In this document: positions 1 to 64,000 of the stretch, in pieces
Layout of the letters: each line of letters begins with the position of its first letter
How positions within the stretch are numbered: the stretch's first letter is position 1
Translations under genes and position numbers: made by a program
Assembly (NCBI GenBank): GCA_039815375.1
Contig: JBCBZJ010000006.1
Location: forward strand, 1-64,000
Length of the DNA stretch: 64,000 bases
Direction: 5' to 3'
Source of the DNA: Verrucomicrobiota bacterium
GTDB lineage: Bacteria > Verrucomicrobiota > Verrucomicrobiia > Opitutales > Coraliomargaritaceae
Notes under the pieces: generated by a model
Told to the model about the DNA's origin: nothing
Database searches by the model: none
The model's input: only the letters and a program-made list of their open reading frames with translations

Positions 1-21
1 AAAATAGTATCCATAATACCT

Positions 22-63
22 CAGTTCGTAACTTCTAGGGTGTTACTCATAATACTGTTGGAT
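22..63 (+). promoter_or_regulatory. Putative attI-like recombination site and cassette promoter (copy 1)
   Basis: GTTGGAT at 57-63 complements the first R'' (ATCCAAC 942) and is not preceded by an attC hairpin. 22-57 matches 58278-58313 at 31/36 positions, ungapped. Contains TTCGTA-N17-CATAAT. Confidence 0.65.
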
Positions 64-70
64 AACAAAA

Positions 71-937
71 ATGAACGAACAGGACACTACAATGAATCCA
101 CGCCGTTGGATTGGCGTCCTACTAAGCCTGTTCGTCCCAGGGTTTGGTTTAGTTCGCGCAGGAAGAATCAAACGAGCAGCAATCTGGTTCATTACGCTAA
201 TCTTAGTATCACTTCTTACTGGCATACTGTTGGCACAAGAAAAGATCCCTTTCTTCATCGCAGTGGCCTCGTTCATTTCTGCGATAGGCGTTCAAATTGC
301 CATGCTGTGCGATAGTTTTCGAGCAGGTCGAATGACAGGGAAACTATGGGCGATATACGTCGGCATATTTACACTGCTCTTATTGGCTCCGCCACCTATA
401 TCAGTTCTAGTCAAAGCCTTCAGTATACCAACGAACTCAATGGCGCCAACACTAATGGGCACGAATTCAAGCACTGGATCGGATCACGTAATTGTCGACC
501 GCATCAGTTATCTCTTTGGTAGCCCACAGAGGGGTGATCTTGTCGTTTTCAAAACTTCAGGGATTTCAGGGATACAGCAATTCCGAGGTGAAGAACAAAG
601 TGAAGTCTTCTACGTAATGCGACTCATTGGCCTACCTGAAGAAAGTATTTCTATTTCCGACGGGGCTATATTCGCAGACGGAGTTAAGTTAGAAAGTAAG
701 AATGGAATCCTTCCCTTCACTAAGTATCTGACGGCAGCGGAGATTCCAGTTTCAGGATTTGACGAAAAATCGGACTTCAGGGTGAAGGAGAACGAATATT
801 TTGTCTTGGGAGATAATAGCCCTAACAGCCTAGACAGCCGTTTTTGGGGCGGTGTCCCTGAAGATGCTATTATCGGCAAAGTAACCACTATTTATTACCC
901 GTTTAGTCGAGCTGGAAGGATCACTCAATCTGAATAA
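71..937 (+). CDS. lepB: Signal peptidase I family protein with N-terminal TM helices (cassette 1)
   Basis: Motifs FSIPTNSMAPTL, PQRGDLVVF and YFVLGDNSPNSLDSRFWG; the catalytic Lys position reads M (YVMRLIGLP). Confidence 0.85.
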   Translation: MNEQDTTMNPRRWIGVLLSLFVPGFGLVRAGRIKRAAIWFITLILVSLLTGILLAQEKIPFFIAVASFISAIGVQIAMLCDSFRAGRMTGKLWAIYVGIFTLLLLAPPPISVLVKAFSIPTNSMAPTLMGTNSSTGSDHVIVDRISYLFGSPQRGDLVVFKTSGISGIQQFRGEEQSEVFYVMRLIGLPEESISISDGAIFADGVKLESKNGILPFTKYLTAAEIPVSGFDEKSDFRVKENEYFVLGDNSPNSLDSRFWGGVPEDAIIGKVTTIYYPFSRAGRITQSE

Positions 938-945
938 AATAATCC

Positions 946-980
<35 letters not shown>

Positions 981-1022
981 ACGCGCTACTCTCCGCGCAT
1001 CCCCTCTACGTTCTAGAAGAGA

Positions 1023-1475
1023 ATGTTTTACCAAGTCACATCAGAACTCCAGAGCGAGAAGATCGCAAAGATAACGGAATACGACAAGAACTGCACATCT
1101 GTTATCGAAAGCTGGGACATCAACCTAGACCTAAAAAGAACACTTCAGTGGTATTGGTTCGCTAAACCAGTAAACATCCTCTGGTGCATCAAAGAAGTCG
1201 TAGAAACAGAAAAAGAAATGAACAACATTTCTAATGGATTGCTGGCAATCGGCTGCGGCCCAAATGGTGACGACCTTCTCGTGGATACAAAATCAATGGA
1301 AGTATATTTCTGGCAGCATGAATCTGCGGCAGACTACGAAAAGAGAATCAAATCAGACTGCATAAAGGTTTATGACCATCTGTTAGCACTACTCGTAAAT
1401 CTGAGAAACAGAAATTATATCCCCTGGGATTCACACGCAGCAGAAGAATATTACCCACTCTTCAATGGAAAGTAA
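1023..1475 (+). CDS. SMI1/KNR4 (SUKH) family protein, possible toxin immunity (cassette 2)
   Basis: LLAIGCGPNGDDLLVD...EVYFWQHE resembles the SUKH core. Confidence 0.6.
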   Translation: MFYQVTSELQSEKIAKITEYDKNCTSVIESWDINLDLKRTLQWYWFAKPVNILWCIKEVVETEKEMNNISNGLLAIGCGPNGDDLLVDTKSMEVYFWQHESAADYEKRIKSDCIKVYDHLLALLVNLRNRNYIPWDSHAAEEYYPLFNGK

Positions 1476-1526
1476 GACTAGAACCAGTCGATCGTCTCAA
1501 TTCCTTTCGCGCTCCGCGCTTCAGTC

Positions 1527-1838
1527 TTGAGACATCTTCACGATCTACAGAAAATAAAATTTGTCCTGATCCCAAAGAGCATTCCGTGGCTGAGTATTTT
1601 TCTAGCGGCACTTGTCTCATTTATGCTTGTTGGAATCGGCATCCCCGTTGGAGGTGGGCAAGAAATGGTCTGGTTCGCACGATCAAGCCTAACCCTCTTT
1701 GCGGGGATCACTTTTTTGTCCATCTACGAGAAAATAAAAGGGAATGAAGGAAAGGCAGCGGTGTGTGCGATTATGAATGCGACTTTACTCGTTTGGTGGA
1801 CTCCTCTAGCAATGCTTACATGGAAGGCAGCACAGTGA
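1527..1838 (+). CDS. Small membrane protein (cassette 3); start uncertain
   Basis: Three hydrophobic segments; the track start lies inside the upstream attC and the first in-cassette in-frame ATG is 1623. Confidence 0.5.
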   Translation: MRHLHDLQKIKFVLIPKSIPWLSIFLAALVSFMLVGIGIPVGGGQEMVWFARSSLTLFAGITFLSIYEKIKGNEGKAAVCAIMNATLLVWWTPLAMLTWKAAQ

Positions 1839-1881
1839 ATCCTAGACCAATTGACAGAACGAAGCGTAGATCCAGACGCAC

Positions 1882-1925
<44 letters not shown>

Positions 1926-1946
1926 TCACGATCTACAGAAAATAAG

Positions 1947-2138
1947 ATGACAGGCCCACTAACACTAATCGGATTAAGTCTACTCTGTTTTATAACACTT
2001 TGGGGCCTAAAATTCGTTCCTGGTGTTTACAGCGAGATGTCGCCACTTGGTTTTCTGATTGTAGGCATTGGAGCGCTGGGAGTTCTGTTCGGCCTAGTTG
2101 GCATCATTTGGGGGATCGTAAAAACTGAGTCTGAATAG
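1947..2138 (+). CDS. Small 2-TM membrane protein (cassette 4)
   Basis: ATG 17 nt after the cassette start; two hydrophobic helices. Confidence 0.6.
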   Translation: MTGPLTLIGLSLLCFITLWGLKFVPGVYSEMSPLGFLIVGIGALGVLFGLVGIIWGIVKTESE

Positions 2139-2210
2139 AAAAAAGAATCAAATTAGACGAATGAAACCTAATTCACCTACAGACCAAATGGAGCGTAGAT
2201 CCAGACGCAC

Positions 2211-2255
<45 letters not shown>

Positions 2256-2275
2256 AACGATCTAGGAAATTAAAA

Positions 2276-2548
2276 ATGAGAGAGACCATCAGTCATCCAA
2301 AATACCCGGAACAACTATATCATTTGGATGAATCGGCAGCTCGAAAACTGAAGGAAGAGAAAGAAGCAAAATCACCATTCGTTCAGGGCATCACCGAATT
2401 ATTCACAGCCCCTCGAGTTAGATGCTCTAAGTGTGGCAAGGATATGAAAAAGAAATGGATGAATGAGTTTGGAGGGTCGACAGAACAGCTGTTTTTGGTT
2501 TGCGATGACTGCCATCTTTTTGTGGATTGCATGAGATGGAGAGATTAA
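2276..2548 (+). CDS. Zinc-ribbon-like protein (cassette 5)
   Basis: CSKC...CDDC motif pair. Confidence 0.6.
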   Translation: MRETISHPKYPEQLYHLDESAARKLKEEKEAKSPFVQGITELFTAPRVRCSKCGKDMKKKWMNEFGGSTEQLFLVCDDCHLFVDCMRWRD

Positions 2549-2579
2549 AAATCCACGAGTCTAATGCCATGGAAGGTAG

Positions 2580-2611
<32 letters not shown>

Positions 2612-2652
2612 TCGCGCTTCACTCGCGATAGTGCTCAACGTTGGGTAAGAAA

Positions 2653-3159
<507 letters not shown>

Positions 3160-3219
3160 GGGCAAAGGATAAGAATGAATCTTCAAAGCCAACCACACAC
3201 CAAATAAAGCACATGCTAA

Positions 3220-3654
3220 ATGAGTGAGAATCTTCAATATGATCTTATTACCCACGGCATCACTATCCTCATTAGCGTTTGCGGGACGTTGATTTACATC
3301 TTCTATCAATCCAGAAGAGAATTTAAAAAGACCATAGGAATGCTTAAAGCAGAATTGGCAGACTGCGCCGACGCTAGATTGATTGAATTTTTCTTGAACC
3401 ACAAAAACAGCGTCCGAGATGTCTGCTCTAGACACAGCATCGACGTTCCTTTCTGGAAGAGAAAGAAGTTCATCACGACATACACAGAGTTTTTGAACCT
3501 CCAACCCGAGGACATCATCATTGACCGCGTGCGCGACAAATTGAAAGAGCAAGGAAGCATAACAGATACTGCACCGCACACACCACTTGCTAAGTTTCCG
3601 GGAAGAGAACGAATGAACGACCTCTTGACCAATCTTAATCGACTGGCAGGCTAG
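3220..3654 (+). CDS. Hypothetical protein with N-terminal TM helix (cassette 7)
   Basis: ORF fills the cassette and ends just before R'' at 3657. Confidence 0.65.
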   Translation: MSENLQYDLITHGITILISVCGTLIYIFYQSRREFKKTIGMLKAELADCADARLIEFFLNHKNSVRDVCSRHSIDVPFWKRKKFITTYTEFLNLQPEDIIIDRVRDKLKEQGSITDTAPHTPLAKFPGRERMNDLLTNLNRLAG

Positions 3655-3761
3655 GGATCCAACCAGTCGAGCGAGACAACCGATTAACGCCGCAAGAAGT
3701 CCGAGAATCATTTGCACGATTTTAGTCATTGGTTCGGTGTCTCCTCTATACGTCGGAAAAA

Positions 3762-4163
3762 ATGAAAATGTATAGCGTCAGATCGGTCCTTGAATGGAAG
3801 GGCCGGAAGGACATCCAAAAGAAGCATCTTTACGAGGAGCGGATCACGGTCTGGAACGCCAATTCACTTGATGAAGCGATAGCTTTGGCAGAGAAAGAAA
3901 TCGATGCGTATGTGAACGAGGAGTCTTCAAAGAAAGAGAAGATGTCCCCTCTCGGGTTTTACCAAGCGTTTGCGGGTTTCAAAGAAGTTCGACTGGACCT
4001 CCAGGGAGAGGAAGTGTTTTCTTTACTCCGGCAAAGCAATTTAGAGCCAGATGATTACCTTGATAGCTTTTTCGATACGGGGGACGAACACCAGCAAGGA
4101 AAGGAGCCTGATCAAGGCGCTGGTATCAATTCCGTTACGTCGCTCCGCGACGCTACTACATGA
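3762..4163 (+). CDS. DUF4288-like protein (cassette 8)
   Basis: YEERITVWNANSLDEAIALAE and EVFSLLRQS patterns. Confidence 0.6.
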   Translation: MKMYSVRSVLEWKGRKDIQKKHLYEERITVWNANSLDEAIALAEKEIDAYVNEESSKKEKMSPLGFYQAFAGFKEVRLDLQGEEVFSLLRQSNLEPDDYLDSFFDTGDEHQQGKEPDQGAGINSVTSLRDATT

Positions 4164-4187
4164 TACAGCTTCACGTTCTGGGAAAGA

Positions 4188-4562
4188 ATGCTCTCCTTTC
4201 ACCTAAAGCATCTCTTACTAGCAATAGCGATTCTTGCGGCTGTTGTTCTTCTTTTCGGATTAAGGAAAGAGAAGGTCTATGCCGCAGTTGCTCATGTGGA
4301 ACTTATCCGTGATGAACCAAAAGAAAAAATAAAATCACCACAGAAAATCGAAGCCGATGAGACTATCACCCGAGAGGCAATTGCGGAACTCATCGAAGCA
4401 AAAGAAGGAAACAGAGAATCTTTGATGATGAATGTGATCTATACTCACCCGGATAAAGAAATCCGAAATAAGGTGAAAGAACTGTTCGAAAAAGAATTTC
4501 CAGATGTCTCTCTCGAATTGCGAGAGCCCACACAAAATGAAAGTCAGAACCAAGCAAGATAG
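4188..4562 (+). CDS. Hypothetical secreted or membrane-anchored protein (cassette 9)
   Basis: N-terminal hydrophobic helix; fills the cassette. Confidence 0.65.
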   Translation: MLSFHLKHLLLAIAILAAVVLLFGLRKEKVYAAVAHVELIRDEPKEKIKSPQKIEADETITREAIAELIEAKEGNRESLMMNVIYTHPDKEIRNKVKELFEKEFPDVSLELREPTQNESQNQAR

Positions 4563-4616
4563 CCAACACCGAGGCTGACGCCTCGGCGTCGGCTACTCTA
4601 TGCGTTGTGCAAAAAT

Positions 4617-5030
4617 ATGATCTATGCCATTATCGCAGTTATAGCAGGAGCCATTGGCTTCTTTGCTGGTAAATTCCACTCAGTAGATGTTGATGAGCTA
4701 GAAGAAATGACGGAAAACCTCGAAGGAGCTACGGAAGGTCTTGAGGATTTTACGAAACAAATGGATGCATTTAACTCTGACAATGAAAGACACCTAAAAG
4801 AGAAGTATGAACTATGCATTCCACTTCTGGATGCGTTGGAAGAAAACGACATTGAATTCGCGAAAACGCATCTAATTGAAGAGTTCGGCCGTTTCTATTA
4901 TAACTACACTTATGAGGATGAAAGATATATGAATACTGATACGGTAGAGGATTACCTCAAACAGTTTGAAAATAAAGCAAAGCACTCACAAAGCTACCAG
5001 CTCATTGTCAGCTATCAATCGGAAGACTAA
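4617..5030 (+). CDS. Hypothetical membrane-anchored acidic protein (cassette 10)
   Basis: N-terminal TM segment; stop adjacent to R'' at 5032. Confidence 0.7.
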   Translation: MIYAIIAVIAGAIGFFAGKFHSVDVDELEEMTENLEGATEGLEDFTKQMDAFNSDNERHLKEKYELCIPLLDALEENDIEFAKTHLIEEFGRFYYNYTYEDERYMNTDTVEDYLKQFENKAKHSQSYQLIVSYQSED

Positions 5031-5035
5031 AGCAC

Positions 5036-5067
<32 letters not shown>

Positions 5068-5090
5068 CGCCAGAGCTCGACGTTCTAAAA

Positions 5091-5402
5091 ATGAAGAAGC
5101 TAATAATGGAATGGAGCATCACTATTCTGTCCGCAGCTATTCCGTTTTGCTTTGGATCGATCGTTTCCAAGTTTTTCGAAGGAAAGGTTCAAAACAGTGG
5201 AGAGTTTCCAGCCGCGACAAGCTTAACATTCGACATCTGGAATATATCAATCATTGCAGCACCCCTTGGAGCCTTAATCCTATGCGGAGTTAGTTTTTTC
5301 ATAGTAAAAAGAGAATATCGGACGATCATTGCACTGATCTACTTGTTGCCATGGAAGCTAGCACTTGGTTTCTCATATTTCGGATCTACCTTAATCAAAT
5401 AA
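5091..5402 (+). CDS. Hypothetical membrane protein (cassette 11)
   Basis: Three hydrophobic segments; fills the cassette. Confidence 0.65.
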   Translation: MKKLIMEWSITILSAAIPFCFGSIVSKFFEGKVQNSGEFPAATSLTFDIWNISIIAAPLGALILCGVSFFIVKREYRTIIALIYLLPWKLALGFSYFGSTLIK

Positions 5403-5472
5403 ATAGAAATTAGAATAAGCCGTGCTGGGCAACGCCTTTGGCGTCGCCCACATCTCGACGTTAGCAATAAAA

Positions 5473-5998
5473 ATGAAATCCATCGCTACGATTACCCTTT
5501 GCCTACTTCTATCAGTTTCAGCTTTTGCCAAAATGGCTTCAAAAGTTGAGATTCAGGACATTCAGGAAGTAAAAATAGAAGAGAATAGAATCACCATCGT
5601 TGGGGATCGTTTTTTTAACTCCAGAATGGTTACAACCGAAGAAAAAAAAGATTCAAACTTCGTCATCATGGGGCAGCCTAGTGCAGAATATACAGCGCAG
5701 GGCTATTCAGTAGAGTTTACCATCACACCCTATACTTTAGAGTTGAATGATCCGAACGGAGAACTCTCTCAGGATTCGGGGATTCGGGGATTCGGGGATT
5801 CGGGGATTCGGGGATTCGGGGATTCGGGACATGAAAAAGCAATTTAAGGAATATTGGGTTCAGACTATGGAAACTGCAAAAGCGTTGAGGGTAGGTGATC
5901 AGGTTGAGATATCGATACAAGGAAGTGATATCAGATTTACCGGAGGGCAGCTTAAGTCTGTGACAGGCCAAGGCATGATCATAAACCCAAAGAGCTAA
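5473..5998 (+). pseudogene. Secreted hypothetical protein frameshifted by an octamer repeat (cassette 12)
   Basis: The signal-peptide ORF from 5473 stops at 5847; the natural continuation (MKKQFKEYW...INPKS) is in the next frame and ends at the attC. Confidence 0.75.
5773..5828 (+). repeat. Simple sequence repeat (GATTCGGG)x7
   Basis: Perfect units at 5773, 5781, 5789, 5797, 5805, 5813 and 5821. Confidence 0.97.
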
Positions 5999-6060
5999 CC
6001 AGGCGTGGGTGGCAACGCCTTTGGCGCGCCGTCGCCAGAGCTCCACGTTCTACAGAAGAA

Positions 6061-6249
6061 ATGAGCAAATCTACCAACTACACATTCGTTCTGACTTCGG
6101 TAGTTTTGCTAGCAATTGTTACTGGGTTGGTAGTTCTTTGCATGCCTCTGATTTGGTCACTCTATCTCACTCTTCCACTTTTATTTTTCGTAGCCATTGG
6201 CATGCTAATCATCTGGCGCACCATGAGATACTTTCGACCAAAAGAATAA
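6061..6249 (+). CDS. Small 2-TM membrane protein (cassette 13)
   Basis: ATG 14 nt after the cassette start; two hydrophobic helices. Confidence 0.6.
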   Translation: MSKSTNYTFVLTSVVLLAIVTGLVVLCMPLIWSLYLTLPLLFFVAIGMLIIWRTMRYFRPKE

Positions 6250-6363
6250 GAAAAGGAATGAAGAGAACCAACTCTGACAGAAAAAGAATCTTAGGATACG
6301 AAATTGAATCGACTTCGATGAAACAGAATTCCTCAGACATTCAGAACACCCAGAATCGACTGG

Positions 6364-6410
<47 letters not shown>

Positions 6411-6441
6411 TCTTGAGACATCTCTACGTTCTGCTAAGAAA

Positions 6442-7071
6442 ATGAAAGCCCTACGATCAGTCACGTTCCTTGTCCTTTTCGCAATTCTCGGAGCTAAGGA
6501 GAGTCGAGGCGAGACATGGCCAACATTGGAGATGTATGTCGATTGGTGTGTATTGATCGTTCTGTGTGAGACGGAAGAGTTTGATGAGGGCGTGCGCTAT
6601 AAAGTCAAGGAGCAGTGGAAGGGTGTCTACTCTCCAGATCTCTTTCACCACAAGCCCGAAGAAGGCTATCTTTACGCAAACACTTGGCACGGGAACGAAA
6701 AGCCAAAAGCTGGAGAACAAACAGTCTTTTTCTTTACCGCTGGCAATCACCCTGTCTGGACGAAGGGGAGGTTGTTAGACCACTCTACCTCTTTTCGAGT
6801 TATAGATGGCAAGGTGATTTACGCTTCAACTGGCAATTGGGGTGTTCGCAAGGAATACAGCATTAATGATTTTCGTAAGGAAGTGGCTAGGCATTTGAGA
6901 GCACAGTATGCGGAAAGTGTCAGACTGAAGGTTACAGGGGGCGAGACGAGTATTGCAGCAAAACCAAAACGAGCAGAACAAGACGGCGCTGGCCAACCCG
7001 CTACCGCTTCGGAGTCGAAGCCGGAGGGTGAATCGAAAACCAAACCAGAATCGGAGGGTCGCTCCCAGTAG
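6442..7071 (+). CDS. Secreted hypothetical protein with attC-encoded C-terminal tail (cassette 14)
   Basis: Signal peptide; the last 32 codons lie inside the long attC 6973-7097. Confidence 0.75.
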   Translation: MKALRSVTFLVLFAILGAKESRGETWPTLEMYVDWCVLIVLCETEEFDEGVRYKVKEQWKGVYSPDLFHHKPEEGYLYANTWHGNEKPKAGEQTVFFFTAGNHPVWTKGRLLDHSTSFRVIDGKVIYASTGNWGVRKEYSINDFRKEVARHLRAQYAESVRLKVTGGETSIAAKPKRAEQDGAGQPATASESKPEGESKTKPESEGRSQ

Positions 7072-7100
7072 CGGGTGGCAGGCCTCGGACGTTATGTAGA

Positions 7101-7511
7101 ATGAAAACCTTTTTCACAATCTGCACACTGATAGCAACGAGCTGCTTCCTCCAGGCTTTATCCGTTGTTGATAGAAGCCTAGAAGAAGTCATCCAAGACG
7201 CCGAACTAATCGTTGTCGGTTATATCGAGTCATACGAAGGAAGAGAGAAAAGCAAAATTGGAGGTCCCAAGTATGATTGGCGCGCGGAGCTAGTGATCAC
7301 CAAGACGCTGAAACAACCGATCAAAGCGAATAAGAAAATCTCGATTCGTTGGCTCGAACTACACACAGAAAAGGAATACGAGGCGAAGACTCTACAAATC
7401 TGGATTCTAGAGAAAACAAGAGGCAATGATTATTACTTCGTAGCGATACCTCACGGAACATATCCTCTTTCGCATGAAGCCGAAATACTTGAACACATAA
7501 CCAGTCGGTAG
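7101..7511 (+). CDS. Secreted hypothetical protein (cassette 15)
   Basis: Signal peptide; SLEEVIQDAELIVVG pattern. Confidence 0.7.
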   Translation: MKTFFTICTLIATSCFLQALSVVDRSLEEVIQDAELIVVGYIESYEGREKSKIGGPKYDWRAELVITKTLKQPIKANKKISIRWLELHTEKEYEAKTLQIWILEKTRGNDYYFVAIPHGTYPLSHEAEILEHITSR

Positions 7512-7564
7512 TGGCAAAGCCGGCTAGCGCCGCCGTCGCCACACCTCGGCGTTGTGCAAAAGAA

Positions 7565-8059
7565 ATGAAAGCGACCTTTATATTACTTTTCGTTATTTTC
7601 CCCTTGTTTCTTCTTGGATACGACATTGATCGAATTGTAATCACTGCCTCGGAAGGGAAAGAATTGAATGTCATTGAAGACCCAAAAGAGATCGTAAGAT
7701 ATGTTAAGCTATTGAACGCACCCGACCGTCCGTATGGAAAGCTCACAGACCCAATTTCACTCCCAGGTCCGCTTGTTGTTCTAGTATTCTACAAAGAGAA
7801 TCATGTGATAGGAGCCTCAGGGATTTTGATTTACGAAAGCTGGGTGACCAAACACCAAGCTATATGGAGCAAAGTAAAAGAAAGAGTGAATATCTCAGAT
7901 GAATTCATCTTGGGGACAAACAAAGGATTGACCGAAGCAGTCATAACCAGAATCGAAGCGAATTTCCCTGATTATCTAGATGAGATTGACCCAAACTATA
8001 GCCTCTCGAAGCATAACTTGAGAGAAAAAGCAAAACTGGCACAACCAATCGGGAGATGA
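7565..8059 (+). CDS. Secreted hypothetical protein (cassette 16)
   Basis: ATG 14 nt after the cassette start; signal-like N-terminus. Confidence 0.7.
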   Translation: MKATFILLFVIFPLFLLGYDIDRIVITASEGKELNVIEDPKEIVRYVKLLNAPDRPYGKLTDPISLPGPLVVLVFYKENHVIGASGILIYESWVTKHQAIWSKVKERVNISDEFILGTNKGLTEAVITRIEANFPDYLDEIDPNYSLSKHNLREKAKLAQPIGR

Positions 8060-8123
8060 CAACTCCGTTACGCGCTCCGCGCTTCACTTCGTGATACACT
8101 TTGACGTTGTGCAAAAGAATTTC

Positions 8124-8942
<819 letters not shown>

Positions 8943-9176
8943 ATCGGCCTGGGAGATTCGAACGACCAATAAGCGAGTAAGGTTTTAAGGAAAAAAGAAG
9001 AATTGAACAAAGACCAGTTTGAGCCATCTTGAAGCTATCGGAATGAGTCTCGGAAAAATGAAAGAATCAGCAACGGACGAGGTCGATCATCTCGGACCGA
9101 ATAGATGGGATATCCAGACGGTCGTATCAACTCCGTTCGCTGCGCTCACTACGTGATACACCTCTACGATCCAGAA

Positions 9177-9740
<564 letters not shown>

Positions 9741-9779
9741 ATCAGTCTTGAGACATCTCCACGTTTTGGCTAAAGAAAT

Positions 9780-10445
9780 ATGAAAACAAAAATCCTCATT
9801 CTTTTTGTGCTGGCTTCTCCCTGCTTGAGAGCAGGCCAAGTCTTCACTATCTATGACTCGAATGAAACAATCTCTCAGAAATTAGTCTCTGAATACATTG
9901 ATTGGGCAGGTCCATACATCCGAGAGTATCCACCACGGTTTCAATCCCAAGAGCATCAGAAGAAAATCATTGCTTCGTCTCTAATGGTCCTAGGCGAGAT
10001 AAAGAAAATGGATCCAGCGCAGATCAAAGACGTATCACTCCTCACCGATTTGGCCTATATTTTGTCGATGGGACATAATTTGGATATGGGAACCGCAGAG
10101 TTGTCGAAGAACTTCTTCGAAGGCGCCCTAAAGAGAGAGCCGAATAATCGACGAGCGAATTATCTCATGGGGATGTTTCTGGTGAGCACCAGAAAGTATC
10201 AGTTTGACAGTGTTCCATACCTTGAGAAAGCACTCGAACTCGGAGAGAAGGATGCAGAATTCACGCTAGGTCTTATCGCAGTGAACCAAGGAAGAAGGGA
10301 TGAAGGCCTTAGGATGCTCAAGAACTATTCGGATGACTATCCCAACAATGAACATGTTAAACAGATCATTGAAGCGATAGAAAAAGAAGAGCTTGAATTC
10401 AAGACATCTGATTCCAAAATAATAGAGGTTGAAATCAAAGAATGA
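9780..10445 (+). CDS. Secreted TPR-repeat protein (cassette 20)
   Basis: Signal peptide; TPR-like helices (ALKREPNNRRANYLMG, YLEKALELG). Confidence 0.7.
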   Translation: MKTKILILFVLASPCLRAGQVFTIYDSNETISQKLVSEYIDWAGPYIREYPPRFQSQEHQKKIIASSLMVLGEIKKMDPAQIKDVSLLTDLAYILSMGHNLDMGTAELSKNFFEGALKREPNNRRANYLMGMFLVSTRKYQFDSVPYLEKALELGEKDAEFTLGLIAVNQGRRDEGLRMLKNYSDDYPNNEHVKQIIEAIEKEELEFKTSDSKIIEVEIKE

Positions 10446-10478
10446 GGAGCCAACAAGGCGATGGTATCAACTCCGTTA

Positions 10479-10511
<33 letters not shown>

Positions 10512-10543
10512 TGGTGGACGAACGCTTCGTGTTCGCTGAAAGA

Positions 10544-11020
10544 ATGAAACTATTCACACAGAGATACGAAAGCAGTTGGCTCTATTATTTCGTATTCAAG
10601 ACTCTTGGCGGTCTTGCACTAGGAGGCGCCTTGCTCGTCTTAGCTCTAATTAGCATCTACGGAACAGAGCCCTTCTTCGAAGGAGAAGAATCCACCATCG
10701 AACTTGTGGCAGTAGCAATCATGATGACAGCTGTAATCTATATGACTTGTCACTTCAGCGTCGTAAAAGCCGACAGTAAAGGTCTCCACATCCACAAGAA
10801 CGGAAAAAAGAAAAAGAAAGAATGGAATGAGGTGAAAGCGATACATCAGATGCCATTCTGCACACCACCTGTATACCGAATTAGCTTCTACGGAAAAGAG
10901 AAGTCATCCTATGTGAGTGTTTTCTCATGGGCTTCACTCACAGTTGGTTTTTGGTCCTGGGATTTCACAGACTTCAAAGAGAATATCGAATACATGATTG
11001 AAACCTCGGAACAAGAATAG
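10544..11020 (+). CDS. Hypothetical membrane protein (cassette 21)
   Basis: Two TM helices followed by a soluble domain. Confidence 0.65.
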   Translation: MKLFTQRYESSWLYYFVFKTLGGLALGGALLVLALISIYGTEPFFEGEESTIELVAVAIMMTAVIYMTCHFSVVKADSKGLHIHKNGKKKKKEWNEVKAIHQMPFCTPPVYRISFYGKEKSSYVSVFSWASLTVGFWSWDFTDFKENIEYMIETSEQE

Positions 11021-11096
11021 AGTAAACGAGGGGTGGTATCAACTCCGTTCGCTCCGCTCACTTCGTCGATACACCTTAACGTTCGGCAAAAAGAAA

Positions 11097-11597
11097 ATGA
11101 ATACAATCAAAGCTTACACCATCATGTTAATTGCTGCGGCTCTCGGAGGCTGCGCTACGACCCCCACAACATATCCGGAAGCGACCGTCACAACGGAACA
11201 TATAAAACGTGTTGGAGGAGAACTCCTTGATGCCCCTGAAGCAATCACTGGAGTGAAATGGAATGAAAAGGAGATTCTCTTTTTCGGTAAGACTAGTCGC
11301 GTCCCACTCATAAAGGAACATGGACTTGGGGTCATTTTCGACCTTCACTCAAGCTTCCCGGAAGTAAGTTTCGTAGACCTAAAGGTCACCTATCCCAGAA
11401 TGTATTCAGAAACAAAGAAATATCCCGGGCTCATCGAAAGAAAACAAAAAATAGAATATGATTCGACCGGACGATATGTAAGTTTCGCTTACTACTTCGA
11501 CGAAGATTGGGAGCTAGTTGAAGGAATTTGGAATGTCACCATCTCACTGGATGACGCCATTATTGGCTCTGCAGAAATTGAGACTTACCACCCATAG
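11097..11597 (+). CDS. Lipoprotein, DUF3859-like (cassette 22)
   Basis: Lipobox LGGC; YYFDEDWELVEGIW C-terminal motif. Confidence 0.6.
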   Translation: MNTIKAYTIMLIAAALGGCATTPTTYPEATVTTEHIKRVGGELLDAPEAITGVKWNEKEILFFGKTSRVPLIKEHGLGVIFDLHSSFPEVSFVDLKVTYPRMYSETKKYPGLIERKQKIEYDSTGRYVSFAYYFDEDWELVEGIWNVTISLDDAIIGSAEIETYHP

Positions 11598-11669
11598 GCC
11601 GAACAGGTCGGAGTGAGCAACGGCTGCGCCGTCGCTCATCCTCGACGTTATGCCACACAAAAAGCAAAA

Positions 11670-12473
11670 ATGAGATACAACAAACTACTAATTATTGTTA
11701 TCCTCGCATTATCTATAACTCGTTTATTTGGCAGCAATATCCAGATTGGCTCCTTCGAAGCTGAAGTTTTAGCAGAATATGGTCAGCCTAAATCCAGCAT
11801 GGAAGCTGGCCGAAAGAAAATCATTATTTACGATGGTTTAAAAATCACTCTGTTAGATGGTGTTGTAACTAGCATCAAGAATACACCCCAACCTACAAAA
11901 CAAAGACCGTCGCCTACTTACAATTCGAGTAAAAAACCAAAGCCAACCACATCAAACCAAGTTAAAAAAGAACATGATGCCCCACTAGTGGTTGGAAGGT
12001 TCACAGAACGATCAATCAGTTTTTCTACTGGCGACACAGTCGAAATAGAAGCACCAATCAATTTTGAACCGCTTAAAAAAGTAGACTCTCTTGTCCAACC
12101 CGCGAGCATATACGCTTCGAAAGCCTTCAGTAGTAAATTCATGCTCAACATATCCACAATGCCTCTTGATCGAGAGCACAGGAAGCTAAGTGCTTCTGAC
12201 GTGGCCAAGGAGTCGATTGTTGCCGCTGGCATAGCCTATACAAATTATAATCTAATCTTTCAGCGAAACATCACAGTTGATCGCCGCAAAGCATCCTACC
12301 ACAGAACAGAGGGCATCCCAAAATATGGAATAAAGGAACTCACAAGAAATGATGTTATTACGATAAAAAAAGGATCAAATCTCATTTTCGTAAGTGTAGA
12401 AGGTCCAGCCAAAGAATTTGATTCAATCGAATCCTATATCACTCAGATACTAAACAGTATCAAATTAAAATAG
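11670..12473 (+). CDS. Secreted hypothetical protein, C-terminal PsbP/DUF1795-like fold (cassette 23)
   Basis: Signal peptide, Pro/Thr linker, C-terminal FDSIESYITQILNSIK helix. Confidence 0.6.
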   Translation: MRYNKLLIIVILALSITRLFGSNIQIGSFEAEVLAEYGQPKSSMEAGRKKIIIYDGLKITLLDGVVTSIKNTPQPTKQRPSPTYNSSKKPKPTTSNQVKKEHDAPLVVGRFTERSISFSTGDTVEIEAPINFEPLKKVDSLVQPASIYASKAFSSKFMLNISTMPLDREHRKLSASDVAKESIVAAGIAYTNYNLIFQRNITVDRRKASYHRTEGIPKYGIKELTRNDVITIKKGSNLIFVSVEGPAKEFDSIESYITQILNSIKLK

Positions 12474-12550
12474 GGCCATAACCTGACGATCGTGGCAACG
12501 ACTGTGCTGCGCACAGTCGTTGCCACATCTCTACGTAAGAAAAGAAACTC

Positions 12551-31420: not shown

Positions 31421-32062
31421 CTACAAACTTCTCACCACCGCTTTGGCCACACCTTGCACGCTGAGTTCGTTGACAGGATAGAGCTCCGGGTAGAATTTAT
31501 TTTCGGCTTTGAGGTAGGGTGGCTCGCCAGGCTTCTGGATGTATCGCTTGAGGGTGGTTTCACCGTCGATCAGCGCGGCTACGATGTCGCCGTCACGCAC
31601 GTCACGTTGCTCGACCACGACCATATCACCTTCGTAGATCTCGGCGTCGACCATACTGTCGCCACGGACCTGAAGTGCGAAGGTGCGGCGGCGGTTGCCG
31701 AAGCCGACATGTTCGATGCCGACCTGTAGGCGTCCGATTTCTCCACCGGACTCAACCCGGTCGGGGTAGCCGGCGGCGATGTCACCCAGAATTGGAATGT
31801 CAACAACTTCGCTGGCATCCTCAGGAATTTCATTGAAATCAGGCTTGTTAGGACGATTTATACGGAAAGTTCGAGCCTGGCCGGCTATCCTTTCAAGTGC
31901 CCCTTTCTTTTCAAGAGCACGGAGATGGCCCATCACAGCATTGGTGCTTTTGAAGCTGAATTCGTCCTGTATCTCGCGAATACTGGGCCAGTAGCCATTC
32001 CGCCACTCGTGGTTTTCAATGAAAGTGAGGATTTCTTGTTGGCGTTTGGTCAGGTCTTTCAT
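31421..32062 (-). CDS. lexA: SOS repressor LexA
   Basis: LTKRQQEIL..PSIREI wHTH, AAG cleavage site, GDSM and TLKR. Confidence 0.95.
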   Translation of the reverse strand: MKDLTKRQQEILTFIENHEWRNGYWPSIREIQDEFSFKSTNAVMGHLRALEKKGALERIAGQARTFRINRPNKPDFNEIPEDASEVVDIPILGDIAAGYPDRVESGGEIGRLQVGIEHVGFGNRRRTFALQVRGDSMVDAEIYEGDMVVVEQRDVRDGDIVAALIDGETTLKRYIQKPGEPPYLKAENKFYPELYPVNELSVQGVAKAVVRSL

Positions 32063-32072
32063 AGTGAGCAAT

Positions 32073-32086
32073 TGTATAGGTGAACA
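32073..32086. promoter_or_regulatory. Putative LexA (SOS) box, autoregulatory
   Basis: TGTAT-AGGT-GAACA, 8/10 match to the Verrucomicrobia consensus TGTTC-N4-GAACA, 10 nt upstream of the lexA ATG. Confidence 0.7.
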
Positions 32087-32188
32087 ATTGTCCATTGTCA
32101 AGTCTGTGAATAAGCTGTGGATAAAGAGGGCTATCTTGTAACAATTTGATTTGAACAAGTGCCACACCCCGCTTTCGTAGGTACTTTG

Positions 32189-55847: not shown

Positions 55848-57761
55848 ATGAGCGACTTTTTGAAGCATGAATGCGGGATTGCACTGATCCGCTTACTTAA
55901 ACCGATATCCTACTATCAGGAGAAATACGGCACGCCCCTTTATGGGTTTAACCAGCTCTTTCTGCTTATGGAAAAGCAGCATAACCGTGGTCAGGACGGC
56001 GCTGGCATTGGCTGTGTTAAAATCAATGTGCCGCCAGGGAAGGCCTACATGGCTCGAGAGCGCACAACCAAGTCGAACTCGCTTTCGCGGATCTTTAAAG
56101 GCCGGATGAAGGATTACCAAAACCTGATAGATTCGGGCACGATCCACCCGGAATTTCCGCAGACGGTGAAGGATAATTTCGATTTCGGTGGCGAAATCCT
56201 TATCGGCCATCTCCGATATGCCACTTCCGGCCTCTACAATCGAGAAAATTGCCACCCTTACGTGCGTGAATCGAACTGGCCGACAAAAAACCTAATGCTG
56301 GCCGGCAACTTCACGATTACGAATGAGAAGGATCTCAACGAAGGTCTGATCAACCGAGGGCAGCACCCGATTTTCGGCACTGATACACAGGCGGTTCTAG
56401 AGCAGATCGGTTTCCATCTGGATGAGGCACATGATGCAATCTACCACCGCATGCGTGATCAAAATATCCCCGGTGCACGTATTCCCAAGATCATAAGTCA
56501 GGAAATCGATCCTGTGCGCATCCTGAAAAATGCAGCATCCGGTTGGGACGGCGGCTACGCGATCGCTGGTTTGATTGGCAACGGCGATACTTTTGTCATG
56601 CGTGACCCGCATGGTATTCGCCCGTGTTTCTATTTTCAGAACGAGGAAGTGATCGCCTTCGCCTCCGAGCGCGTTGCGTTGATGACAATTTTCAATCAGC
56701 CGATCGAAAATGTCTGTGAGCTTGAGCCTGGCTCAGCGACTGTTGTAAAAAGCGACGGCACGATCTACTGCGAACGATTCACGAAACGCCGTGAGGTCAA
56801 GCCATGCTCTTTCGAGCGGATCTACTTCTCACGCGGGAACGACGCGGATATCTACCGAGAGCGCAAAGCACTGGGTGGCGCACTTCTCGACCAAGTGGTG
56901 AAGGCGACCGATAATAACTTTGCCGACAGTGTTTTCAGCTTCGTGCCCAACACCGCTGAGGTGGCCTATCACGGCTTACTCGAGTCCGTCCGCGTCCATC
57001 GCAGGAAAGAGGTCAAGGCGTCGATCTTGAAGGCCAAGGAAGACGACACGCTGGATGAAGCGCTTCTGGATAAGCTTATCATGGGCAACTGGCCGCGAGG
57101 GGAGAAGATTGCTCACAAAGATATCAAACTACGGACTTTCATTTCGCAGGAATCTGGTCGCGCGCAGTTGGTCTCCCACGTCTACGATATTACCTACGGG
57201 GTGGTTAAGGAAAAGGACTGCCTGGTCTGTATCGACGATTCGATCGTTCGCGGCACAACGCTTAAGGAGTCGATTCTCAACATCCTGAGCCGCACCAATC
57301 CCCGAAAAATTGTGGTCGCGTCCACTGCGCCGCAGATTCGCTACCCGGACTGCTATGGCATTGATATGTCTGAGCTGGGGAAGTTTATTGCTTTTAAGGC
57401 GACGATTGAGCTGATCAAAGAAGATGGTAGCACAGATCTTCTGCAGGACGTTTATCAGGATTGTGTTGCTCAGGCTGGATTACCCTCAGATCAGATGGTG
57501 AACCATGTGAAGCGACTCTACGATCGTTACACTGACGAACAGATTTCAAGAAAGATCGCTGAACTGGTTTACCCGAAGCGTGTTCCCTGGAAAGGCGAAC
57601 TCGAGATTGTCTTCCTCACCGTCGAAAAAATGAAGGAAGCGATCCCGCATCATAACGGGGATTGGTATTTTACGGGCGATTACCCAACTCCCGGTGGCAC
57701 AGCTGTCTTGAACCGTGCATACATCAACTACTACGAGAACAGAGTAGGGCGCTCTTACTAG
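55848..57761 (+). CDS. purF: Amidophosphoribosyltransferase
   Basis: HECG N-terminal nucleophile, QHNRGQDG, CSFERIYFSR and DDSIVRGTT. Confidence 0.93.
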   Translation: MSDFLKHECGIALIRLLKPISYYQEKYGTPLYGFNQLFLLMEKQHNRGQDGAGIGCVKINVPPGKAYMARERTTKSNSLSRIFKGRMKDYQNLIDSGTIHPEFPQTVKDNFDFGGEILIGHLRYATSGLYNRENCHPYVRESNWPTKNLMLAGNFTITNEKDLNEGLINRGQHPIFGTDTQAVLEQIGFHLDEAHDAIYHRMRDQNIPGARIPKIISQEIDPVRILKNAASGWDGGYAIAGLIGNGDTFVMRDPHGIRPCFYFQNEEVIAFASERVALMTIFNQPIENVCELEPGSATVVKSDGTIYCERFTKRREVKPCSFERIYFSRGNDADIYRERKALGGALLDQVVKATDNNFADSVFSFVPNTAEVAYHGLLESVRVHRRKEVKASILKAKEDDTLDEALLDKLIMGNWPRGEKIAHKDIKLRTFISQESGRAQLVSHVYDITYGVVKEKDCLVCIDDSIVRGTTLKESILNILSRTNPRKIVVASTAPQIRYPDCYGIDMSELGKFIAFKATIELIKEDGSTDLLQDVYQDCVAQAGLPSDQMVNHVKRLYDRYTDEQISRKIAELVYPKRVPWKGELEIVFLTVEKMKEAIPHHNGDWYFTGDYPTPGGTAVLNRAYINYYENRVGRSY

Positions 57762-57783: not shown

Positions 57784-57891
57784 TCAGGGCATCTTTGTCA
57801 GCATCATATCCATTGCGCAGTTGTCAGTGGCACCTGCAAAAACGAGGCCGGCACCTACGAGAATCGGCACTGCCAGAAAACCGCTGTGGAT
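57784..57891 (-). pseudogene. YgaP/DUF2892 (rhodanese-associated TM domain) fragment
   Basis: Hand translation IHSGFLAVPILVGAGLVFAGATDNCAMDMMLTKMP*N; the stop falls at the usual MPWN Trp and there is no intact 5' part. Confidence 0.65.
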
Positions 57892-58277
57892 AGGATGCCC
57901 AGCTTACCAGCTTGTATATGAGATTGTTCTCATGGCAAAGCCAAGTTCCTATGCCGTGTTGCTGTGGTATTAATACTATAAGTGTGATTATGTTCACTTT
58001 ATTTGAGTTAAGAGAGAAGGTTCCAGATTCGTTCTATTGACGTTATGGCAAGAGGCTCGCTAAGTTGATAGTTAGTGATTCTTGCCCAAAATGAATGCTC
58101 TAAAGCCTTAAAATCGCCTTTGAGACCAATGGTGGGAGCATGGTTGGCGTCTACAATAAATATCCGAAAACGTATGAAATGAAGACCTTCATACTTAAAA
58201 ATAAAAAGACTCCTAAATTACCTGTAAACCCTGACGAACTAAGGGTCTATGGGCGGTTTGGGATCGCATTTTTCTCG

Positions 58278-58319
58278 CAGTTCGTAAGTTTTGGGGTGTG
58301 ACTGATAATACTGTTGGAC
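58278..58319 (+). promoter_or_regulatory. Putative attI-like recombination site and cassette promoter (copy 2)
   Basis: 31/36 identical to 22-57; GTTGGAC (58313) complements R'' GTCCAAC (58751); contains TTCGTA-N17-GATAAT. Confidence 0.65.
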
Positions 58320-58328
58320 GAAGAAAAA

Positions 58329-58821
<493 letters not shown>

Positions 58822-58832
58822 CGACGAAAGAA

Positions 58833-59405
58833 ATGGATAACCCAGAACTAGTCATAGCTCTTCTAGCAACTTTCACCTCACTGGTTGCTACCGCTATCGC
58901 TTACTCGGCTTATCGGTCTCAGACTGACCCAGACGTAATAGTCTATTTGGAACACGACGAAAAGAGACCTTCGTTAATCCTTCTTGTTATCGAAAATCGA
59001 GGCAGTGGTGTAGCTCATGATGTCCAATTCGAGATACCCGATGATTTCCCTAGCGATCCGATAGGTATAACCGCTACAGGAAAAAAGAGCTTTGAGCGTA
59101 TGACTGAAGGACCACTTATTTCGGGTATCAAATCTTTACCACCAAAAGGGAAAAGAATTCTTAACTGGGGGCAGTATGGTGGAATCTACGATTACATGGG
59201 TGCTTACCACAAAACAATTAAAGTGAGATTTAAGAGAAGGAAGTTGTTTGGTCTGGACGACCAAACTTTTGAAACCGAATCGGACATTGAAGTCATTTCC
59301 TATTCTCGAACCGACGCCAGCAATAGATCAGAAGCAACTCACTTAAAGAAAATCTCAGAGACCCTCGTGGGAATCGAAAAGCAACTGAACAAGATGAACA
59401 AATAG
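58833..59405 (+). CDS. Hypothetical protein with N-terminal TM (cassette)
   Basis: PDVIVYL..LVIENRGSGVAHDV; fills the cassette. Confidence 0.75.
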   Translation: MDNPELVIALLATFTSLVATAIAYSAYRSQTDPDVIVYLEHDEKRPSLILLVIENRGSGVAHDVQFEIPDDFPSDPIGITATGKKSFERMTEGPLISGIKSLPPKGKRILNWGQYGGIYDYMGAYHKTIKVRFKRRKLFGLDDQTFETESDIEVISYSRTDASNRSEATHLKKISETLVGIEKQLNKMNK

Positions 59406-59537
59406 TCGAACCAATCGCTGCTGGCAGTGTCGCTAACGCGCCATCGCCAGAGCTCGACGTTAGGTGAAAAAATAATAACTCCCTAGGACTAAAAAAAGTG
59501 CAAGCATCGAACCCAAAGCATAAGGAATAAGCACACT

Positions 59538-59930
59538 ATGGAAGACGCTCAATTTATCACTTTCTTGTCTGCACTCATTGGTGGAGGAATAGCCGCTATA
59601 GCTTCGATAGTTACTATCATTATCGGGCGTATATTCGACGAACGAAGAGAAAGAAGAAAAATGGTCTTCGACCTCGCTTCCGCTCACTACAAGGGGAGAA
59701 AGGCAGACGCACAAGTCACTGCAAATGGAACAGGACGGCCCCAGTTCGTAGAACCCTTTGAAGATTTCATCGTCTATGCTGATGAAATGTGTAGAATTGT
59801 CGAAGGAAAGACCTTCAAGAGTAAGAGCTTCTTGCGTCGATCCAGAGGAGCTAAGGAGCTTCGAGAGATTATAAGCCGAAACTCCGACAATAAGGACCAA
59901 AATGGCAAGCAAGACATACACAGCCCCTAG
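59538..59930 (+). CDS. Hypothetical protein with N-terminal TM (cassette)
   Basis: ORF co-oriented with the array and ending before R''. Confidence 0.65.
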   Translation: MEDAQFITFLSALIGGGIAAIASIVTIIIGRIFDERRERRKMVFDLASAHYKGRKADAQVTANGTGRPQFVEPFEDFIVYADEMCRIVEGKTFKSKSFLRRSRGAKELREIISRNSDNKDQNGKQDIHSP

Positions 59931-60241
59931 CCCTGAAAAAACGACCTAACCAGTCGAGAGATACAACCTCTTTCGCTGCGCTAATTTTCAAATTATCTAA
60001 ACGTTAGTAAAATGCTTGAAATCGCTGGATTGGGGTAGGTGGCTTTAGTTCTCTCATTCTGTTTTATTCTAACCGAAGCCGTATAAAACTCCAAATAGCC
60101 TAACGCTGGATGGTCCAAAAAGACTACTCTGGCATTAGTTTAAAAGCGATAATCCAAATAAATTTAATGATTTGTAAAAAAGCCTGTTCTTGATCTTGCA
60201 AAGACGTTTCCCGGGATTACGAGCTGAGGTTTTACTCAGAT

Positions 60242-61027
60242 ATGAAATTCTCTACCAGCTATAAACTGATGATACTCGCCTCGACGGTTCTGGTCCATGG
60301 GAGTGCTGAGGAATCTTTAACAACATTCAGTGATGCTGAGGCAGATGCCATTATCGCACAGCAAGTCGCTGCTAAAGCGCAACGGGAAGCCGAGCATCTA
60401 GCCAACACGGTCGCTTTTCAGGTTTTGGAACGGCGTGAGATGAGTATGGGAGATCGAAAGCTGATTGCTTGCCGTATTGCGGACCCAAAGCTTCCGAAAG
60501 AAGAAGTCCTCGCACCTGTAATCAGTTCCGGCTCCGCCCAGGCGCCCCAGTTTACAAACTACATTCCAAAGGAGAGTGTCACGTTAATGCTGTCTGCATC
60601 CGTATATAATAACAGCGTAACGCAGCTCAAATGGAGGCATGAAAATATCGAGTATGAGGTATGGAGCAGCATCGATTGGAATTTCATGCGCAGCGTGCAT
60701 AGCCTGAAAACGGACACGATGGACTACTCCATCGTTCAGGGAGTTGGCGATCTGCCATTGGCGGATAATGAAATCCCGGAGCTACCCGCCTTCACCCCAG
60801 ATCGTGCCGAGTATTTTGTGTTTCTTGAAGAGGGGCAAGAATTGGACGATACCGCATTCGCGGCGATTGATGCTTTGCACCAGCACTACGAGGCCAACGA
60901 GGAAATGCTAAAGACAGTCTACCAGCGAAATGCCGCCCTGGCAGAGGCAAAGAAGCGGCACAAGGCAGCAAACCCCGAAAAGCCCGGGAATGCTGAAATC
61001 TTCTTTTGGAAGTCTGAAACAAACTAA
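60242..61027 (+). CDS. Secreted hypothetical protein
   Basis: Signal peptide; 261 aa; first gene of an apparent operon. Confidence 0.75.
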   Translation: MKFSTSYKLMILASTVLVHGSAEESLTTFSDAEADAIIAQQVAAKAQREAEHLANTVAFQVLERREMSMGDRKLIACRIADPKLPKEEVLAPVISSGSAQAPQFTNYIPKESVTLMLSASVYNNSVTQLKWRHENIEYEVWSSIDWNFMRSVHSLKTDTMDYSIVQGVGDLPLADNEIPELPAFTPDRAEYFVFLEEGQELDDTAFAAIDALHQHYEANEEMLKTVYQRNAALAEAKKRHKAANPEKPGNAEIFFWKSETN

Positions 61028-61041
61028 CCGGCTGCACAGAC

Positions 61042-63480: not shown

Positions 63481-63503
63481 TATAATCTGATTTTTCAGTT
63501 TCC

Positions 63504-64000
63504 ATGTTTAAACAAGCCTTTCTTAGTTTTTCAGCACTCGCGTTGAGTGCCACCTTCGTGTGGTCGAATGACAGCAATCTGGCACACAATATTGATTCAG
63601 CCAAAGCCAAGCTTGAAGCCGACTGGACACCACCCGCACCCGAACAGAGTGCAACAGCGACACGCAAACGCCGCGCTCCGGCCGGTGTTCGGCATGGTAT
63701 CGCCACCCGCAGCTTGAGCGCTGCACCGCTGGACAAGGACATTACCGCTCTGTCCGCTTTTGCCGAGCCGATCCGTCCTTTGCCCGGCAGTTCCTCCGCA
63801 GCAGAAACCGCTGCCCTGTCCTCCGCACTCGGCGCCTATATAAACACGGCAGAGAGTGAGGTCATCGCCCCTCTGGCTCAATTTACCATAGACTATCCCG
63901 ATTCCCGCTGGACTCCGGGTATTTTGCTCAACCTCGGAACCATCAGCTACAACACAGGCTACTTTTCCAAAGCACTGGAGCACTGGTGGAATGCCTGGGA
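63504..64000 (+). CDS. Partial large secreted protein, probably the N-terminus of an Rhs/peptidase-C39-type protein (runs off window)
   Basis: Hand translation is open to the window end: MFKQAFLSFSALAL...YPDSRWTPGILLNLGTISYNTGYFSKALEHWWNAW (TPR-like). Confidence 0.6.
   Translation, partial: MFKQAFLSFSALALSATFVWSNDSNLAHNIDSAKAKLEADWTPPAPEQSATATRKRRAPAGVRHGIATRSLSAAPLDKDITALSAFAEPIRPLPGSSSAAETAALSSALGAYINTAESEVIAPLAQFTIDYPDSRWTPGILLNLGTISYNTGYFSKALEHWWNAW

Follow-up and report, generated by a model that had tools for sequence, protein, structure and literature searches.

The 36-nt motif that occurs twice in the DNA analysed here is, judging by its sequence and its position in relatives, the attI of one clade (Y) of integron integrases in marine Opitutales. 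We lean towards the view that integrons of this kind multiply, lose their integrase gene (intI) and leave behind attI platforms, some of which stay acceptors for an integrase supplied in trans. The established points from which this view starts are the attI identity of the motif, the intI remnants at three of its copies (A, B and D), multiplication that is lineage-specific, and first cassettes that differ at a site without an integrase gene. For the pair of sites in the window (the whole stretch analysed, 64,000 nt), the explanation is an ordinary one, namely an attI beside a hidden 5′ intI and a deletion remnant; the pattern across the family is less ordinary.

Contig C2, which begins with the window, belongs to a Verrucomicrobiota (Opitutales) genome (G000; 3.56 Mb, 66 contigs). 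An earlier note on this DNA had pointed out two sites, A at bp 22-59 and B at bp 58278-58315, both on the plus strand, and its coordinates and alignment were reproduced: the 36-mers align without gaps and are identical at 31 of 36 positions up to the crossover G, which is bp 57 in A and bp 58313 in B (G|TT in both). By chance, at least 31 matches in 36 positions would be expected about 3e-9 times per 64-kb window. With a 19-nt weight matrix, the whole genome gives five matches of at least 31 bits, which are the five training sites, and the next match scores 13.7 bits; three shuffled genomes give none of at least 19 bits. The five copies are A (C2:22), B (C2:58278), D (C2:71225), E (C11:421038) and F (C9:155), the last being core-only and running, with its cassette, off the contig end. 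In all five, GTT and then a cassette-like start follow.

The proposal that each of the two sites starts its own cassette array also holds. An attC profile has 67 matches genome-wide, of which 21 are at bp 946-12536, in array A (bp 58..12540, plus strand, 44% GC, first cassette encoding an S26 peptidase), and three at bp 58755-59996, in array B (bp 58314..60005, plus strand, first cassette with a PspC domain). Within array B, the attC scores fall with distance from attI, from 43 through 27 to 12 bits. At A, B, D, E and in the metagenome contig L042, the 7-bp core of the first cassette and the R″ arm of its attC are exact reverse complements. Such an exact complement is seen in 15 of the 29 sites that have enough downstream DNA and is absent in 14, with a chance of about 0.016 per site. 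At A, B, D and E, therefore, the crossover is fixed independently of the motif.

The same motif is found in the canonical attI position beside a divergent intI in G015, G018 and L044, where intI starts 403, 339 and 235 nt upstream of it, respectively. The intI of G015 is frameshifted in the assembly; that of G018 is an open frame of 436 aa above the TIGR02249 cut-off. Together with the core/R″ matches, this canonical position upholds the earlier claim that the sites are attI. The integrases of G015, G018 and G010 form one clade (Y), 65-72% identical, and other integrase clades of the family have attI sequences of their own. A strict 34-nt pattern gave no match in a collection of species genomes; a relaxed pattern gave six there, all in records under the names Verrucomicrobiota, Puniceicoccaceae or Opitutaceae, three in metagenome contigs and none in viral contigs. 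One of the metagenome matches, L043, was dropped, as it lies inside an unrelated ORF.

In the clade-Y platform, a direct box lies 33-35 nt ahead of the crossover, and inverted boxes are found mostly 45-47, 56-57 and 116-117 nt further upstream. A step of 10-11 nt is one helical turn, which suggests, by analogy, that the boxes are phased for the binding of a protein, putatively IntI. Site A comprises an accessory box, a simple site and the crossover; it is recognised by the alignment, by its core/R″ match and by identity to L044 over 59 nt. Site B, recognised by alignment to A, its core/R″ match and its conserved boxes, has at bp 58232..58240 (plus strand), 46 nt upstream of the 36-mer, a further box, which repeats in inverted form the one that the 36-mer contains. 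Between B and E, the boxes differ at 1 of 35 positions and the spacers at 12 of 47 (P=0.006). Conservation of the 36-nt core and the boxes extends across genera; that of the boxes could predate the loss of intI. The earlier note had the similarity of A and B ending upstream; in the L044 stretch identical to window 1-59, however, the upstream box in common with B is present. The apparent end is an edge effect, since the window begins where C2 begins, with just 21 nt upstream of site A before the contig break. The layout resembles attI1, in which a simple site is accompanied by upstream repeats, DR1 and DR2, proposed to bind integrase (PMC3146285), whereas here one box is direct and the others are inverted and further upstream, their binding of integrase being putative and argued by analogy.

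Site A is not the stand-alone platform it had been taken for. By exact contig-end overlap, no left neighbour of C2 was found. Metagenome contig L044, identical to window 1-59, places a 5′ intI at the distance given above and has a different first cassette. In run X1, flagged as a possible source of the genome, a 688-nt contig corresponds to L044 273-960 with five differences and ends exactly at the crossover; it follows that site A adjoins a 5′ intI in this genome too, and these contigs indicate that 154 codons of it are hidden by the contig break. After those 154 codons, the intI of L044 is interrupted at GAT by an attC-like repeat, and the same junction is present in X1. A second, unlike continuation in X1 at the junction point continues the integrase frame by hand reading, and the forks on both sides of the junction fit either a mixed population or two platform copies. 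The L044 first cassette is without cover in X1, a weak result since the filter drops contigs, and the intI-attI part of L044 is without cover in runs X2-X4, which is no evidence of absence. An ORF-less repeat of 190-290 bp, which makes up a cassette at site E (G000 C11:421074-421372), also occurs in C4, C12, C28, C33, C38, C58, C62 and C63 and at L044:1-273; in L044, it joins intI at GAT, as if a cassette had been inserted into the integrase gene.

Nor is B a stand-alone platform in origin. The earlier note had named an intI pseudogene at 57.9-58.3 kb as a finding that would speak against its proposal; a 5′ remnant and a promoter region of intI were found there, so that this condition is borne out on a small scale. 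The segment 57892-58003 can be aligned with the start and promoter of the intI in the complete integron of G015, scoring 60, compared with a mean of 24 and a maximum of 33 in 60 shuffles. On the minus strand, nine intI codons and a stop (57904..57933, from the DNA alignment to G015) continue in frame into the 39 final codons of a rhodanese/YgaP-like gene (3′ remnant at 57787..57903, minus strand; Pfam PF11127, E=0.012, below cut-off), and a degenerate LexA-like box at 57982..57997 may belong to the lost intI promoter. Because the nine codons are fused to the rhodanese remnant, B arose by deletion of intI; it is what is left of a complete integron whose intI was lost in one deletion. Intact intI is absent beside site B, and contig C2 has no integrase matches. 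With three attC and no integrase gene nearby, array B is a CALIN (at least two attC, no nearby integrase gene). A scan for the cassette promoter Pc upstream of B gave one sigma-70-like match, compared with 1.1 expected by chance.

The left flank of this island is purF (55848..57761, plus strand). Among eight congeners, the neighbours of purF are a rhodanese-like gene and purH in G002, G004 and G005, in which the rhodanese/YgaP-like gene is intact between the two; purH comes directly after purF in G003, and the remaining four have other neighbours. Here, the purF-purH gap is about 14 kb and is occupied by platforms B (three cassettes) and D (one cassette) and by an RHS-type module. No platform or attC was found in the 0.5-1.5 kb present at the purF loci of the eight congeners, which makes them an empty site and not an instance of array variation. 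At D, the intI remnant consists of about 73 frameshifted codons, 57% identical to the IntI of L044. The DNA between B and D (60242-64000 and L019:27-6766) encodes a TSP3-repeat protein, a 1562-aa RHS-like ORF and the products of small downstream genes.

What, then, would serve these platforms? The earlier note had several platforms served in trans by one integrase. The several platforms are borne out by the five copies, their cassette-like starts and a difference between strains at E; the single integrase is not, as the genome has three integrases above the TIGR02249 cut-off, none of clade Y. Two clade-Y 3′ intI ends lie at the ends of contigs C17 and C30, and with the 5′ part known via X1, they are all of clade-Y intI that was assembled in this genome. 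Since the pieces end at contig ends, an intact clade-Y intI may be absent from the assembly though present in the genome. The same fate of intI is seen on C33 and C4 for two other integrase clades, C33 having the 5′-remnant pattern, and G002 has four copies of one integrase; multiplication of integrons and then loss of intI is common in this group.

As to regulation, lexA (31421..32095, minus strand) is preceded by a palindromic box, a putative LexA-binding site, resembling the one found upstream of the intI starts of several clades; at B, it is degenerate. Since the palindrome has 90 genome matches at two mismatches, we infer rather than assert SOS control of intI, which is probable on this sequence pattern and agrees with known intI regulation as given in passages of PMC8876359. 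A GAGACCAATGG-like word is common to some platforms and the intI 3′ flank, and has 18 genome matches at one mismatch. In the integrases of L014, L084 and L080, the SAM-like domain is preceded by about 110-150 extra N-terminal residues; in G018, this extension has no Pfam match.

Signs of continued use come from site E, which adjoins tspO. Neither tblastn with 19 integrase queries nor DNA alignment found an intI remnant there. Contig L042 is 96.8% identical to site E over 531 nt up to the crossover, with 99 of the last 100 nt the same; beyond the crossover, it carries a DUF6985 cassette that has no match in G000. The first cassettes of both have exact core-to-R″ matches. The two sequences indicate that the first cassette differs between strains at a site that lacks an integrase gene, although the strain comparisons, at E as at A, are made on two short metagenome contigs. 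Whether a first cassette was gained or lost, recombination at attI would be required, which would make an integrase acting in trans the simplest cause; strain differences could also stem from homologous recombination between platforms that are alike, or from change that preceded the loss of intI. Arrays of this genome have no cassette gene in common, apart from the ORF-less repeat and short cassette ends, and this counts against lively shuffling. At site F (L034, G000 C9:137-306), the 19-nt core is accompanied by a perfect LexA-like palindrome and a consensus sigma-70 promoter directed toward the cassette, possibly an SOS-controlled cassette promoter.

In the family, a 50-nt profile is positive in 11 of 101 genomes, from which G066 was dropped on viewing as chance. 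An assembled clade-Y IntI is present in three of the 101, with site counts of 4, 4 and 3, and of the six other accepted positives, five have one site and G017 has one and a weak one; these counts are from draft genomes of kin that are not independent. In an order-wide sample, 4 of 151 genomes are positive. The profile matches G075b, G084, G115, G015d and G004, like G066, were dropped as chance after viewing; G182 and G238 were left unviewed, and G017b, G060 and G089 are weak. No clade-Y integrase was found in G064, G002 or G223, all of which carry sites. In a tree of the copies, grouping is by genome for G010 (99), the stand-alone copies of G018 (97) and G015 (96), while those of the present genome form two groups, one of A and D and the other of B and E, and the deep nodes are unsupported; A, F, G017b, G089 and G060 are given as left out. 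Stand-alone clade-Y platforms with cassettes lie beside phage- or ICE-like genes at L046 (G002:C32) and L103 (G064:C2), a neighbourhood that is a possible route of spread.

The most dispersed platforms are in G223, where eight copies at unrelated loci each head a short low-GC insert. They are three-box platforms of about 160 bp, with 50-84% identity across some 165 nt; identity is 0.90 in the box outside the search model, compared with 0.59-0.62 in the spacers, and the 60-nt spacing is kept in 8/8. None of the eight has an intI match in the 2.5 kb upstream, and the intI-like matches of G223 are confined to two contig ends, where they are frameshifted pieces of another clade. Three of the eight, and G015c as well, have a mutated crossover triplet, so some copies are dead. 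One G223 platform is in the dnaX-dinB interval, which in G248 (L189, G248:C25:78850-80260) contains another attI-like site and a cassette, with no room for intI.

We therefore favour a course of events in which whole integrons would multiply within a lineage and most copies would then lose intI, by deletion or by insertion of a cassette into it. The non-coding platform, with two or three repeated boxes, a simple site and a G|WT crossover, would be kept. At least some orphan platforms would take up or exchange cassettes by means of an integrase encoded elsewhere, which may bind the boxes, would catalyse the exchange in trans and is probably under SOS control. The outcome would be several small landing pads spread over the chromosome. 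A bolder form of this proposal, that Opitutales keep up to eight integrase-free attI modules of about 160 bp and three boxes under selection as acceptors in trans, some of them spread as attI circles made by the integrase, is conceivable, but we hold it only tentatively. If true, many CALINs would be live capture sites and not ruins.

Plain decay would have once-complete integrons freeze when intI was lost, with attI not yet eroded and strain differences that are older or came about by homologous recombination. The remnants at B, D, C33, C4 and G010b, the mutated crossovers of four copies and the orphans in genomes in which no cognate integrase was found are what decay predicts, and intI loss is the standard proposed origin of CALINs in the part of PMC4889954 that treats it. 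Decay does not readily explain why first cassettes differ behind the same integrase-less flank at E and probably at A, why eight dispersed G223 copies only 50-84% identical have kept the sequence and spacing of their boxes, or why the stand-alone copies in G010 start close to the same first box as those in G223. We regard it as unlikely.

Platforms might, alternatively, spread by themselves without intI, either because an integrase, cutting at a downstream attC and at the GTT of the first accessory box, releases a circle bearing attI and a cassette that lands at a genomic GWT, or because a repeat element carries the platform. In G010b, which retains an internal piece of intI, a deletion has brought a GTT within intI up against that of the first box, so the first box can act as a crossover. 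At G223 site e, about 1.25 kb stands where G248 has a 31-nt gap, and its right junction is an attC crossover. The absence of upstream intI matches in all eight G223 copies, and an upstream repeat family common to five of them, would fit as well. The left junction of site e, however, reads G-T-G and not GWT, a counterexample to the idea of a GWT junction at the start of every stand-alone copy; the upstream repeat often occurs in G247 without a platform; short remnants are easily missed, the one at B being invisible to tblastn; and sites B and D clearly derive from whole integrons. We regard self-spread as quite improbable.

That the motif arose by chance, or is merely an attG-type insertion point or a site belonging to some other protein, is hardly credible: permissive thresholds do give weak profile matches without cassettes (5 of 16 viewed loci, 1 of 3 metagenome matches), but the chance expectation, the canonical position beside intI and the exact core-to-R″ complementarity all oppose it, as does the report that attG sites have GWT alone in common (passages of bioRxiv 2022.09.11.507474), for here a 36-nt core and boxes are conserved.

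How does the multiplication and loss that we favour compare with known systems? The origins of CALINs described so far are intI loss, rearrangement and secondary-site insertion, and the excision of CALIN cassettes by IntI in trans has already been the subject of speculation (both in passages of PMC4889954, PMC9668308, 10.1101/2025.06.18.660453, 10.1101/2022.09.11.507474, PMC9229058 and PMC3826837). The closest likeness is with CALINs formed by intI loss (Cury et al. 2016, PMC4889954), which are attC clusters without an intact nearby intI in genomes with IntI elsewhere. In that founding survey, attI could not be searched for in most integrons, and the only pseudogenes sought were C-terminal ones of IntI, present in 15 of 279 CALINs, leaving 95% without a recognisable intI pseudogene. 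The remnants described here are, in contrast, mostly 5′ pieces, which a C-terminal search misses; and whereas those passages treat CALINs as cassette donors, the sequences here suggest that attI is kept, apparently as an acceptor. The attG sites or SALINs of Loot et al. (bioRxiv 10.1101/2022.09.11.507474), as described in part of that preprint, are alike in their G|WT crossover and small dispersed arrays, and attG-like events may be seen here in the GAT junction inside the L044 intI and the right junction of G223 site e; the platforms differ in having the 36-nt core and spaced boxes in common with the attI of complete integrons. Class 2 integrons with a truncated intI2 (PMC8876359) are similar in that attI and array outlast inactivation of the integrase, and Xanthomonas, with a truncated intI and distant CALINs (10.1101/2025.06.18.660453, PMC3826837), in that CALINs occupy several fixed loci. 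According to the described passages, those arrays are largely frozen, and a conserved attI at distant CALINs is absent from these passages. In a literature search that was thin on subscription journals, and in the parts of the sources covered, neither several conserved attI copies at dispersed CALINs nor Opitutales integrons were found.

To the question of the origin and status of CALINs, this lineage brings a searchable attI motif and the observation that remnants as short as nine 5′ codons occur. Because it offers natural orphan sites as well as intact cognate integrases in relatives (G018 and G010), the question whether orphans are acceptors becomes a direct experiment. If they are, there would be many loci for cassette capture, each having a first position of its own, and not one queue.

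Some further features of the arrays deserve mention. A structural attC scan gave 83 candidates, many of them false positives, of which 27 were used as seeds. Three attC of array A (1870-1932, 2199-2261 and 9112-9170) have complementary ATC/GAT cores instead of AAC/GTT, and several attI junctions in relatives read G|AT. The first attC behind A (946-1012), B (58755-58821) and D (C2:72083) are about 96% alike, and the same family occurs in C5, C28 and C30. Finally, a cassette ORF contains about six repeats of a 9-nt unit at 5770-5830, with a change of frame.
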